Origin: Thermoanaerobaculia bacterium | GTDB lineage: Bacteria; Acidobacteriota; Thermoanaerobaculia; Multivoradales; UBA5704 | Reading direction: 5' to 3' | Assembly: GCA_036266195.1 (NCBI GenBank) | Contig: DATANP010000366.1 | Location: forward strand, 1-59,882 | DNA: 59,882 nt | Part shown: positions 24,582-27,600 of the stretch, piece after piece | Position numbering within the stretch: the first letter of the stretch is position 1 | How the letters are laid out: each line of letters begins with the position of its first letter | Made by a program: the position numbers and the translations under genes | The notes under the pieces: generated by a model | What the model saw: the letters and a program-made list of their open reading frames with translations, nothing else | Database searches by the model: none | What the model was told of the DNA's origin: nothing

Positions 24582-24688
24582 CTCTGCTCCTCCTGTTCAA
24601 GGGGTGGACACGCGGCCTGGCGGGTCAAGGCCCGCTCATGTAGTTTGGTGCCCGTCGCTTCCAAAACAGGGACGTCTAAGCATTTCCT

Positions 24689-27600
24689 TTACTTGGCTTT
24701 GCGCTGGAGGAGCTTCTGGAGCGCGGCCCGTTTCTGGTCCGAAAGCGCGGAGCGACGCTCGGCCACCTCTTCTTCGCGGGCGGAGAGGCGCGCCTGGAGA
24801 GCCTCGGCGGTCTCCTCGGGCTGAGGCTCCTCAGCGGTCGCTACGAGTTGCAGGCGTTCAGGCTCGGCGATCCGGGGCAGATCCGCAATCGGGAGATCGG
24901 GGTTCTCCAGGGCCGCCTCCAGGAGGAGGCGGAAGTGGCGGGCCCAGCGCTCGATGGTCGAGGCGTCGAAGAGGTCGGTGGCGTACTGCATGCCGCCCAG
25001 GATCTCGCCACGGAACTCGCCGAGGCCGAGCGCGAGATCGAACAGGGTCACCCCGGACGGCACCTCGACGGGCGTCATGGTCACTCCGGGCAACCCGACC
25101 TGGCCGATCGGCGCGTTCTGAAGGGCGAAGAAGACCTGGAAGAGCGGGTTCCAGGCCAGGTTGCGCTCCCCGCCCAGCGCCTCCACGAGCTTCTCGAACG
25201 GCACGTCCTGGTGCGCGAAGGCGTGGAGCGCCATCGAGCGTACGCCTCCGACCAGCTCCCGGAACGAGCTCCGCTCCCCCTTCTCGTTCCGGCCGCGCAG
25301 GACGACCGTGTTCACGAAGCAGCCGATCAGCCCCTCGGTCTCGGCGCGGTTGCGGCCCGCCACGGGAGTGCCGACCAGCACGTCGTCGTGGCCGGTGAGG
25401 CGGTGCAGCAGCACCTCGTAGGCCGCGAAGAAGGTCATGAACGGCGTGGCGCCCAGGCGCCGGCTCACGGCGTCAACCTTGGCGGCCACCTCCTTCGGCA
25501 GCGTCATGGTCAGGGTCGCGCCCTGGTTGGCCCGCACGGCGGGCCGCGGCCGGTCGGTCGGCAGGTTGATGCGCACCGGCGCCCCTTCGAGCGCGTGCTG
25601 CCAGGAGCCGATCAGGCGTTCCAGGGCTTCGCCCTGAAGCCAGCGCCGCTGCCAGACCGCGTAGTCGCCATATTGGACGGGCAGCGGCTTGAGGCTCGCG
25701 CCGCCGTAGAGGTCCGCCAGCTCCTGGAGCAGGATGCCGGTCGACCAGCCGTCGCTCGCCACGTGGTGGATGGAGAGGATCAGCAGCCAGTCGTCGTCCG
25801 CCATCCGCACCAGGCGGAAGCGGTGCACCGGGCCGCGCCGGAGGTCGATCGGTACGGTCTCCTCCAGCGCGGCGATGCGCAGCATCTCGGCCTCCCGGAC
25901 CTCGTGCGGCAGGGCTCCCAGGTCGACGACCGGCAACGCGACGAGGCTCGGGGGCGAGACACGCTGCACGCCGCGGCCTTCGCGCTGTTCGTAGGTCGTA
26001 CGCAGGATCTCGTGGCGGCGGACGATCTCGGTGAACGCGGACTGGAGGGCCCGCACGTCGAGCAGGCCCGAGAGCCGCAGCGGCGCGGTGATGATGTACT
26101 GCGCGCGCTCCGGCGCGAGCAGATAGGAGAACCAGAGGCGCTCCTGGGCGAAGGCGAGCGGAAGATCGCCGTCCCTGGAGACCGGCACGATCGGCGGGGC
26201 GACAGGCGCGGCATCCGGGCCGGCCGCGAGCGCGGCGTCGACCCGGGAAGCGAGGTCGGCCAGCACCGGCGCCTCGAAGATGCTGCGCAGCGGCAGCTCG
26301 ACGCCGAAGGCGTCGCTCACCCGGGAGATGAGGCGGGTGGCGATCAGCGAGTGGCCGCCCAACTCGAAGAAGTGGTCGCGCCGGCCCACCCTTTCGGCGC
26401 CAAGGAGGTCGGACCACAGGCCGGCCAGGCCGACCTCGGTGGCGGTAGCTGGCGCGACCCACTCCGCCTCCTGGCGGCGGGCCGGGGCCAGGCGGGCGAG
26501 CGCCTTGCGGTCCACCTTGCCGTGCGCGGTGAGCGGCAGCGTGTCCACGAAGGTGAACGAGGAGGGGACCATGTACTCCGGCAGGCGCGCGGCGAGACGG
26601 GAGCGCAGCGCGTCCTCCATCTCCTCCGAGCCGCTGACCGCGTGCGGCTCCGAGACCACGGCGAACACGGCGAGGTGCTTCTGGGTGCCGTCCTCGCCGA
26701 TCGCGAGCACCGCGGCCTGGCGCACCGCCGGCTCCTGCGCGAGCACGGCCTCGATCTCGCCCAGCTCGATGCGGAAGCCGCGCAGCTTCACCTGGTGGTC
26801 GATGCGGCCCAGGAACTCCAGCGTGCCGTCCGGCAGGCGCCGCGCCAGGTCGCCCGAGCGGTACCAGCCGGCCACGAACGTCTCCTCGGTCAGCTCCGGC
26901 CGGTTGAGATAGCCGCGGGTCACCCCCGGGCCGCCGATCCAGACCTCGCCCGGCACGCCCAGCGGCACGAGTTGGCCGTTGCGGTCGTGCAGGTCGAGCA
27001 CGCAGCCGGGGAGCGGCAGGCCGAGCAGGGCGCGCCCCTCGTCTCCGTGAGCATCGTGGCTGGAACAGATGATCGTGGCCTCGGTCGGACCGTAGAGCAC
27101 CGTGGTCACGGCGCGGGGGAAGACGGCGCACATGTCGGCCAGGAGGTCGGCCGGGACCGCGTCTCCGCCCACGAACAGGCGGCGCAGGCTCGATCCCACG
27201 CCTTTCCGGGACGCGCCGTCCACGACCTCGCGCATGAGCGCGGGCACGCCGTGGAGCAGGGTCATGCCGTCGAGCGAATCGACCAGGGCCGGGACGTCCA
27301 GGGTCGGCTTGAGCGGGAAGAGCACCACGGTGCCGCCGGCGAGGAGCGGGCCGAACAGCTCGAACAGGAAGATGTCGAAGGTGAACGCCGCCAGGCACGG
27401 CATGCGGTCCGTAGATGCGATGCCGAACGTCTGCCGGGCCGCGCGCATGGTGTGCGCGAGGTTGCCGTGGTCCACCTGCACGGCCTTGGGCTGGCCGGTG
27501 GTTCCGGAGGTGTAGATGAGGTAGGCGAGGTCGGTGAGAGAAGAAGAAGACCCCTCCCCGTCCCTCCCCTGCTGCGCAGGAGAGGGCGCCTCCGCCCAAA

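Follow-up and report, generated by a model that had tools for sequence, protein, structure and literature searches.

Docking elements decide which subunits of nonribosomal peptide synthetases (NRPSs) interact with one another and are the main handle for re-engineering these assembly lines. The COM domains, which work at junctions between an epimerisation and a condensation (C) domain, reportedly go back to Hahn and Stachelhaus. A docking-domain review treats COM domains (E/C junctions), PAX three-helix bundles and the beta-hairpin type at junctions between a carrier (T) and a C domain, and polyketide synthase (PKS) classes 1 and 2, none of the reviewed classes lying at a junction between a C and an adenylation (A) domain or behind a C domain (PMC9113145). 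Splits within the C-A linker have been engineered in type S NRPSs, which carry SYNZIP coiled coils there and are active (PMC10443035), and natural subunits ending in a C domain exist, the T-C protein CmnI being one of them (PMC12400406). Tandem C domains within a single module are known from the icosalide synthetase, where they serve two donors for one acceptor (PMC10510592). The subject of this report is a 59,882-nt stretch of DNA from a Thermoanaerobaculia bacterium (assembly GCA_036266195.1, contig DATANP010000366.1, positions 1 to 59,882 of the forward strand; about 70% GC; soil-metagenome origin), here called the window, in which one NRPS gene, NRPS-B, ends in a C domain (C_B) followed by a helical hairpin (H1), while the next gene, NRPS-A, starts directly with an A domain.

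The gene boundary between NRPS-B and NRPS-A is real and old, and it divides an NRPS module within the C-A linker. All NRPS genes of the window lie on the minus strand. The final 537 aa of NRPS-B hold a full Pfam Condensation domain (PF00668, profile positions 3-455 of 456, E 1.9e-94), in which the catalytic HHxxxDG motif is intact as HHVASDGWS at aa 4999, and the roughly 51 aa between this domain and the stop codon have no Pfam match. The C-terminal sequence is ...AEALQARLSAREEEVAERRSALSDQKRAALQKLLQRKAK, followed by a TAA stop at 24689-24691, the order of elements being the C domain, a short disordered spacer, the helix-turn-helix H1 of about 40 aa, and the stop. The intergenic spacer that follows (24582-24688) is 107 nt long, has a GC content of 59.8% against 70.9% in its flanks, and carries a ribosome-binding site (RBS), AGGAGGAG, at 24587-24594, 5 nt ahead of the ATG of NRPS-A (24579-24581). 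If the reading frame of NRPS-B is continued through the spacer, it is out of frame with NRPS-A. The N-terminus of the latter is MAMVQEAAAGPHPAQSAAVSGELLHGRFEE, with Pfam matches to AMP-binding at residues 28-379, then AMP-binding_C and PP-binding, and with no Pfam C domain at its start. On the C side the break retains 'DLPRIAEPERLQLV' of the linker, and the A side begins just before 'LLHGRFEE'; in the related locus L085 (related loci are cited by L numbers, proteins by P numbers) the A side retains a degenerate 'GNDT' of the C-A linker. From upstream to downstream, the parts of the junction are:

24845 to 26167, minus strand: C_B, the terminal C domain of NRPS-B (aa 4866-5306), from Pfam PF00668, the HHVASDGWS motif, an AlphaFold2 (AF2) model and Foldseek
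24818 to 24844, minus strand: the tether VATAEEPQP, variable, acidic and proline-rich, between the first C-A-linker helix (AEPERLQLV) and the hairpin; pLDDT (the per-residue model confidence) below 50 at model residues 451-460
24692 to 24817, minus strand: H1, the C-terminal helix-turn-helix tail EETAEALQARLSAREEEVAERRSALSDQKRAALQKLLQRKAK, from the AF2 helices and a hidden Markov model (HMM) of H (60 bits)
24689 to 24691, minus strand: the TAA stop of NRPS-B, its position kept in nine other proteins, from orthologue ends and a read-based contig
24582 to 24688, minus strand: the intergenic spacer of 107 nt with the RBS AGGAGGAG, the motif GCACCAAACTACATGAGCGG (24632-24651) and a small hairpin (24619-24637), from sequence comparison
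24516 to 24581, minus strand: the start of NRPS-A, ATG plus a non-conserved 22-aa leader MAMVQEAAAGPHPAQSAAVSGE, from comparison with relatives
22767 to 24515, minus strand: module 1 of NRPS-A, A (aa 23-520, specificity code DLFNNALTYK) plus T (aa 536-605), no C in cis, from Pfam and the domain map

A Logan contig from soil-metagenome run X1 (1883 nt, depth 7.7) covers positions 24008-25600 with zero differences and zero gaps. A search with the last 200 aa of NRPS-B returned five proteins at 59-85% identity, each stopping a few residues past the tail, and a scan of 1.84 billion representative proteins with an HMM of the tail added four more distant proteins with the same ending, the stop after H being common to all nine (P0001-P0005, P0124, P0128, P0134, P0137). 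As an independent read-based contig is identical and the stop is kept in nine other proteins, the junction is not an artefact. The spacer itself contains the motif GCACCAnAnTACrTrAGyGG followed by a short GC hairpin (24619-24651), which is kept in the window and in the loci L081 and L082, with proteins that are only 63-75% identical, and a 'TCCC' upstream could pair with the RBS. No Rfam family matched the spacer and no sigma-70-like promoter was found in it, and consensus folding of the three spacers gave weak support for an RNA structure.

C_B looks functional, to judge by its full length, its intact motif and its modelled fold. The AF2 model of C_B plus tail, built from an 18-row alignment, gives a normal C domain (pLDDT 82.9), the best Foldseek match of which is the C-A structure of Txo2 (6p1j, TMq 0.81, 39% identity), and the C domains of Txo2, TycC and CmnI match at TMq 0.75-0.81. 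With a full-length PF00668 match, a C fold and HHxxxDG, it has the characters of an elongation (LCL-like) C domain, one that is left without A-T of its own module in cis and ends with the stop 51 aa past the domain. A misreading of the pre-linker C domains as epimerisation domains was considered and rejected. C_B itself has motifs of the C type (FAQERLWF, IGCFVNT..R) and no match to an epimerisation-specific family in NCBIfam. A chain-releasing C domain (C_T) would have no thioesterase (TE) downstream, and a TE-ending NRPS follows C_B in the window and in L082, L081 and L085, the TE of L081 and L085 being inferred, as the DNA ends before the 3' end of that gene. In L083 and L089, both of which may be remnants, C-H is the last NRPS domain and no TE lies downstream.

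Several lines of evidence from modelling and sequence comparison support H1 as a docking-type element, a helical hairpin on a flexible tether. In the AF2 model, disordered residues (451-460, pLDDT below 50) are followed by two helices (462-481 and 485-499, pLDDT 60-70), the first acidic to mixed and the second ('SDQKRAALQKLLQRKAK') basic, and H1 is thus, as modelled, what is expected of a docking element: short, helical, at a subunit terminus and flexibly tethered. Its core is 50-97% identical to that of its orthologues, higher than the adjacent 93 aa of the C domain in nine of nine comparisons (97 against 91%, 91 against 71%, 68 against 42% and 74 against 54%, for example), a conservation that spans nine lineages and reaches down to about 45% C-domain identity, whereas the tether ahead of it varies in length and sequence. 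A conserved core on a variable tether is the pattern of a functional interaction module and not of a decaying remnant. The hairpin is rare: 21 proteins matched the HMM at E <=0.001 in the 1.84e9 representative proteins, several of them repeat-protein noise. It occurs in three contexts, as a C-terminal C-H followed by the stop (P0005, P0124, P0128, P0134, P0137 and NRPS-B of the window), as an N-terminal H-C (P0126, P0127, P0130, P0139) and as an internal C-H-C (P0125, P0135 and, in the window, NRPS-A and the partial NRPS 'E'), the H1-type and H2-type copies each keeping conserved differences of their own. No relative of the tail was found in Pfam or the PDB, nor any sequence similarity to a solved docking domain. 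An AF2 model of the internal arrangement in NRPS-A (C_pre-H2-C_post, from a two-sequence alignment) reached a pLDDT of 38.5 and is informative only for the presence of two helices in H2. Hairpin alignments in two metagenome-contig scans returned nothing confirmable, and among GTDB species genomes no orthologue was closer than 52% identity, the 80 loci returned being ordinary C domains and the full hairpin being found, besides the window, only in L081 and L082. The closest genomes, at <=52% identity, are uncultured Acidobacteriota, Holophagales, Thermoanaerobaculia and Myxococcota. Only a few independent clusters have their full context available (window, L081, L082, L084, L085/L090, L086, L088, L089).

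The origin of the tail can be read from the other C domains of the window, the domains of which were mapped with window-derived references and motifs and then checked by Pfam. NRPS-B has the layout A-T-(C-A-T)x4-C-H1 and NRPS-A the layout A-T-C-A-T-C-H2-C-A-T-C-A-T-TE; the gene ahead of them (40522-45942, minus strand) codes for a KS(AT-less)-ACP-C-A-T hybrid, referred to below as the KS protein. Two further open reading frames (ORFs), 'E', which is cut by the window end, and 'D', read C-H3-C-A-T-C-A and T-C-A-T-TE. Among the junctions of the line only that between B and A has a spacer, those between the KS protein and B and between A and a cytochrome c gene being ATGA overlaps. The line of KS protein, NRPS-B and NRPS-A contains two C domains without an A domain (C_B and C_pre), two A-first starts without a C domain (those of B and A), one acidic carrier tail and two copies of H, with 10 C domains for 10 aminoacyl carriers. 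C_B and C_pre are mutual closest relatives at 60% identity, against at most 55% with any other C domain of the window, and the tail of NRPS-B matches the C-C linker of NRPS-A at 54% identity over 119 aa including the C-domain end (E 7e-39), as well as the C-C linker of 'E'. These paralogous parts lie at:

18261 to 19601, minus strand: C_pre, the C domain of NRPS-A ahead of the C-C linker (pre-linker C), 60% identical to its paralogue C_B and with no A after it, from the domain map and pairwise comparison
18075 to 18200, minus strand: H2, the hairpin copy between C_pre and C_post, running into '..IPRR..GPARLSFGQERLWF', the start of the next C domain, from tail homology and the HMM
16674 to 18008, minus strand: C_post, the C domain after H2, heading the A-T-C-A-T-TE end of NRPS-A, from the domain map
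58412 to 58537, minus strand: H3, the third hairpin copy, between two C domains of the partial NRPS 'E', from tail homology and the HMM

A sequence-only reading of the window had already placed a C domain (HHVASDGWS) and a helical tail at the end of NRPS-B, a 107-bp spacer of lower GC content with an RBS behind it, and an A domain with no preceding C domain at the start of NRPS-A; it had also named C_B and C_pre as closest relatives and called the tail homologous to the internal C-C linkers. All of this is borne out, the tail being a truncated paralogue of those linkers, and the three motifs quoted as shared by C_B and C_pre occur in both and in no other C domain of the window. Its count of 15 C domains is corrected to 14, and the assembly or frameshift artefact that it had named as one finding that would overturn it is not what the reads show.

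The probable partner of H emerges from junctions of more ordinary layout, in which the hairpin stands on the acceptor side behind carrier domains with an acidic tail of consensus '..EEL.IA..D.LSEEEL'. At L086 a C-A-T subunit ends in '...LAEMALAVEELVIARLDDLSEEELGSLG' (the tail is also given as T-'VEELVIARLDDLSEEELGSLG' and as '..DDLSEEELGSLG', both running to the stop), and the stop of this carrier tail overlaps, as ATGA, the start 'M..EELQARLAAREEKVAGLRASLSERKRALLEKL..' or 'MSAPDTPEPTAEELQARLAAREEKVAGLRASLSERKRALLEKLV...IPRR...LSFAQE' of an H-C-A protein; by its sequence this is a textbook T/C subunit junction in which the acceptor subunit carries H. In L066 and L039, C-first genes that open with shorter relatives of helix 2 ('LSPEQRALFEKLR') come after carrier tails such as '..LLALVEGLSPEEALKKM..', and analogous pairs of tail and H are found in L039, L066, L065 and L078. 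Outside the cluster family of the window, carrier tails with 'LSxEE' in the loci examined are followed by a helix-plus-C gene in five of six cases. In the window only the KS protein has a tail of this kind, one that hardly differs in L081 and the distant L085, the rest of these proteins being well diverged. Since N-terminal members of the H family stand directly behind acidic-tailed carriers, the ligand of H is probably the acidic tail of a carrier domain and, in the window, that of the KS protein. The KS protein is exceptional within the family in that its next gene is the A-first NRPS-B and not an H-C gene, the copies of H being placed C-terminally in B and internally in A. The two features that meet at this upstream junction are:

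40525 to 40587, minus strand: cDD, the acidic docking tail at the C-terminus of the KS protein, unique in the window and the putative ligand of H, from tail comparison
38978 to 40525, minus strand: the true start of NRPS-B (ATG 40523-40525, ATGA overlap with the upstream stop) and its first A domain, A-first with no C, from the domain map

A cognate element for H1 at the N-terminus of NRPS-A was not found. The leader there measures 22 aa in the window, 7 aa in L081 and is essentially absent in L084; it is homologous to the leader at L082 and absent or different in L081, L084 and L085. As it is not conserved, it is ruled out as the docking partner of H. The sequence-only reading had proposed a candidate C-terminal docking helix at the place where a non-covalent C-to-A hand-off would be needed, and of this the docking-type element stands, as a hairpin on a tether, more conserved than the end of the C domain in nine of nine comparisons, and the partner at the N-terminus of NRPS-A does not. 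The T/A junction between the KS protein and NRPS-B (40522-40587 and 40438-40525, ATGA-coupled) is as unusual as the C/A junction and is kept in L081 and L085. The KS domain (43843-45942, minus strand) has the Cys/His/His residues but lacks an AT domain and an N-terminal docking region, and the cluster offers it no carrier upstream; in L090 only TPR, RRM and peptidase genes lie upstream of the KS protein. In L039 (5304-8269) a free-standing helix-plus-C protein and then a second gene, helix plus C-A-T, follow a PKS carrier with an 'LSPEE' tail, a further tandem-C arrangement, split here into separate genes.

What follows a terminal C-H varies among relatives. The layout KS-ACP-C-A-T-cDD, then an A-first protein ending in C-H, then another A-first protein, recurs in three other clusters, with a spacer of about 400 nt and an A-first start 'MPKVNVLQGRFEE' in L081, with a stop/start overlap TGATG and the next gene beginning 'MTELLHGLFEA' in L084, and, at less than 50% identity, with a 225-nt spacer and a next start 'MTMLIEDTDGLVREGNDTREA...' in L085/L090. 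The split that had been proposed as a check in other genomes is thus present in these three, and wherever NRPS-A is present the two genes are adjacent and co-directional. The contrary outcome named at the same time, a tail followed by a C domain with the A-T start belonging to an unrelated pathway, was found in part at L082 and not at L081, L084 and L085, where A-first genes follow. The gene next to C-H at L082 reads leader (MPMVHDEAAG...)-H2-C-A-T-C-A-T-TE, with no A-first start, and corresponds to NRPS-A of the window minus aa ~23-2125 (A-T-C-A-T-C), its flanks (a cytochrome c gene and a DEAD helicase) being syntenic. P0130, from the same genome as L082, has an 'ETLHGLF' stub of an A domain and then H-C. 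The block difference at L082 and this stub indicate that (A-T-C)n blocks between the gene start and the next H have been gained and lost repeatedly. Further apparent lesions are a frameshift in C_B of L083 (~450-560) and an in-frame TAA in A1 of L084 (~700). A 1-nt frameshift in C_B of L082 (9998-9999) had suggested that C_B decays once A1 is missing, an idea that was rejected: the frameshift is an error of the deposited metagenome-assembled genome (MAG), read contigs X25 (depth 15) and X26 having an extra T and A>T at this place, and the corrected ACG CCG TTC ATG reads TPFM in frame, leaving C_B intact.

From adjacency and conservation we infer who binds whom and in which direction the chain flows, and the reading that we prefer as a whole is tentative, somewhat more apt to be wrong than right. 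NRPS-B begins with A-T and thus looks like an initiation module; the protein would initiate, build a pentapeptide and end in the catalytically intact, A-less elongation-type domain C_B. Working in trans, C_B would pass the chain of B to the amino acid on T1 of NRPS-A, a hand-off that is plausible from the adjacency, co-orientation and conservation of the two genes and from the domain count. The tail of the KS protein would bind H2 in the middle of NRPS-A and deliver its acyl-aminoacyl carrier to C_post, and this carrier may also be the acceptor for C_pre, every C domain then being used once. By binding H1 as well, the same tail would tie the KS protein, B and A into one complex.

Several observations weigh against this reading. 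NRPS-A has no conserved N-terminal element, and its module 1 lacks the linker motif 'WNDT..YP', a segment that NRPS-B keeps in the linker comparison. Were C_B merely to feed A1, it would be hard to see what the strongly conserved H1 is for. With the A-first NRPS-B coming after a KS protein that has T-cDD at its end, the cluster in any case departs from full colinearity. The C-H unit is also independent of a downstream A-first gene: at L082 the next gene starts with H-C, at L083 (85% identity) the cytochrome c gene comes directly after C-H with no NRPS gene, and at L089 the genes that follow are unrelated and likewise include no NRPS gene. As C_B is intact in L082 without an A-first gene, the view that C_B exists only for A1 is weakened.

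The alternative that survives best, doubtful but nearly as likely as the preferred reading, gives H1 the same role as all other copies of H. The acidic tail of the KS protein would bring the carrier of that protein to H1, and C_B would put the B peptide on this carrier and not on T1; once loaded, the carrier would re-dock at an entry port of the H-C type, either H2-C_post or H3 of the other line, where the chain would be finished. Modules 1 and 2 of NRPS-A would form an independent second feeder with C_pre-H2 as its exit port, B and A being A-first as chain starters. This would explain the conservation of H1 better than the preferred reading does, as well as the varied genes after C-H (A-first NRPS, H-C NRPS, cytochrome c, unrelated), the intact C_B of L082 without A1, the three contexts of H and the pairing of acidic tails with H in canonical junctions. 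The A domain of the KS protein (code DIWEITADDK) has an acidic pocket with E278 and D331, which we take to be as in Orn/Dab codes; the pocket hints at a diamino acid, the second amine of which would permit two acylations. Such a double acylation of one residue is exactly what this alternative needs, since a C domain already precedes that carrier within the KS protein, and it further predicts two products or a branched product. We know of no precedent for carrier-tail docking that presents a carrier as acceptor, which counts against it. It would also make A1 of NRPS-A an initiation domain without the N-terminal 'NDT..YP' segment, which true initiation domains such as GrsA keep, and it leaves the conserved adjacency of B and A unexplained. 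A branch point on T3 was considered separately and found no support, the specificity code after C-H-C not being of the Ser, Thr or Lys type.

Generalised to the family, H would be a two-way port for a shuttle carrier, with C-H as an exit where the carrier, loaded in trans and recruited by its acidic tail, is the acceptor, H-C as an entry where it is the donor, and C-H-C as a through-port for a whole module of another protein in trans, a generalisation that we consider unlikely. If true, the KS protein (probably KS-dimeric) would be a shuttle linking NRPS-B, NRPS-A and perhaps E/D into a convergent or branched assembly line, and the H family would rewire by gain and loss of (A-T-C)n blocks between the gene start and the next H.

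That H1 is a relic is distinctly improbable. A C-H-C junction would have been duplicated and truncated, leaving H1 with no docking role, C_B releasing or inactive, and B and A making separate peptides. C_B-H1 is clearly a paralogue of C_pre-H2, A-T-C blocks are frequently gained and lost (L082 lacks A1 through C_pre, and P0130 keeps the 'ETLHGLF' stub), C-H ends the cluster in L083 and L089, and relatives carry lesions (the TAA in A1 of L084, the apparent frameshift in L083), all of which would fit. Against this stand the conservation of the H1 core at or above that of the catalytic domain across nine lineages and the conserved stop position; the suspected lesion of L082 turned out to be an assembly error, so that the others may be errors too; and C_B has elongation-type motifs, its closest folds being elongation C domains and not known release domains.

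Homotypic docking, with a helical bundle at a C/C junction made up of H1 and another H (H2, or one at an N-terminus as at L082), is less credible still. It would suit L082, where one subunit ends in C-H1 and the next starts with leader-H2-C, the existence of both C-terminal and N-terminal copies, and the differences that H1-type and H2-type copies each keep. Fused C-H-C junctions have one H only, however, H2 of the window lies 2100 aa away from the A1-T1 that C_B needs, and the N-terminal H of L086 faces a carrier tail and not another H. Helix 2 is basic in all copies, so two of them would repel each other. Finally, the chance that NRPS-B and NRPS-A are really one ORF broken by an assembly or frameshift artefact is negligible: such lesions do occur in the data set (the deposited L082 MAG, and many frameshifts in the long-read assembly of L081), but the X1 contig and the frame mismatch rule it out here, no domain would fit into 107 nt, and an RBS and a conserved motif are present in the spacer, besides the stop kept in other proteins.

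Modules 4 and 5 of NRPS-B (26200-32500) are a recent tandem duplication, with A domains 81% and C domains 70% identical, and the L081 homologue has only three modules. A YhgA-like transposase (Transposase_31 plus DUF4351; 47135-48088, minus strand) occupies a stretch of low GC content (0.62), with the TE end of E/D on one side and the gene of the KS protein on the other, and separates two paralogous assembly lines. A palindromic element of 168 nt (52500-52667) lies inside an A domain of E/D, between motif A8 and 'LPEAMIP', and is bounded by perfect 19-nt terminal inverted repeats, GACCTCACCCCCTGTCCCC and GGGGACAGGGGGTGAGGTC; as it brings a stop and a frame change, with the E/D junction near 52604, ORFs E and D are one broken NRPS gene. 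The repeat arms reach a word depth of 500-1300x in the metagenome against ~7x in the flanks, which indicates a multi-copy element resembling a miniature inverted-repeat transposable element (MITE) or a repetitive extragenic palindrome (REP), and peptide stretches like it ('SPHPLAPSPAGRGG') are inserted in frame in P0130. Downstream of NRPS-A, a cytochrome c-like gene (9832-10827, minus strand) with a signal or transmembrane segment shares an ATGA overlap with the NRPS-A end, and in L082 and L083 such a gene likewise comes right after the last NRPS gene.

Compared with described systems, H is nearest in kind to the PAX elements (PaxB/PaxC) and to the class 2 helical domains of cyanobacterial and myxobacterial PKS/NRPS, which are likewise short helical elements at subunit ends. 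In these an acidic carrier helix pairs with a basic helix before a C domain (PMC9113145), and L086 has that T/C layout. H differs from them in being a two-helix hairpin with no sequence similarity to either and in standing also after C domains, at C-termini and between tandem C domains. COM domains resemble it in placing a helix on the C-terminus of a C-fold domain at a subunit end, but in the window the upstream domain is a canonical C and not an epimerisation domain, the downstream gene starts with A and not with C, and there is no resemblance in sequence. The tuberactinomycin NRPSs (CmnA/I/F/G, VioA/I/F/G) offer subunits that end in C followed by subunits that start without one, VioF and VioG being A-first (A-T-C), and are unrelated in sequence to the window proteins beyond the shared domains; we know of no helical tail or docking element at their C ends. 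In icosalide synthesis the second C domain is a starter C taking a fatty acid, whereas the second C of the window carries an N-terminal docking hairpin, its likely second donor being an acidic-tailed carrier. Type S NRPSs share with the window the split after the first C-A-linker helix and a helical interaction element on the C side, the split in the window being natural and its element standing on the C side only; with nothing of the kind on the A side, the subunits must associate in another way than those of type S.

The split point is nevertheless the cut site used by synthetic biologists for 'exchange units' and type S NRPSs. Should the hairpin serve to bind a subunit that ends in C to its partners, it would be a ready natural tool for C/A splits; should it instead recruit a carrier as acceptor, it would reveal a new route by which a module can be inserted in trans. 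The H family is at the same time a natural record of insertion and deletion of whole A-T-C blocks at this point. What sets the locus apart from the systems described so far is a rare, conserved docking-type hairpin behind C domains at a natural split of the C-A linker, described docking elements being those of T/C or E/C junctions.

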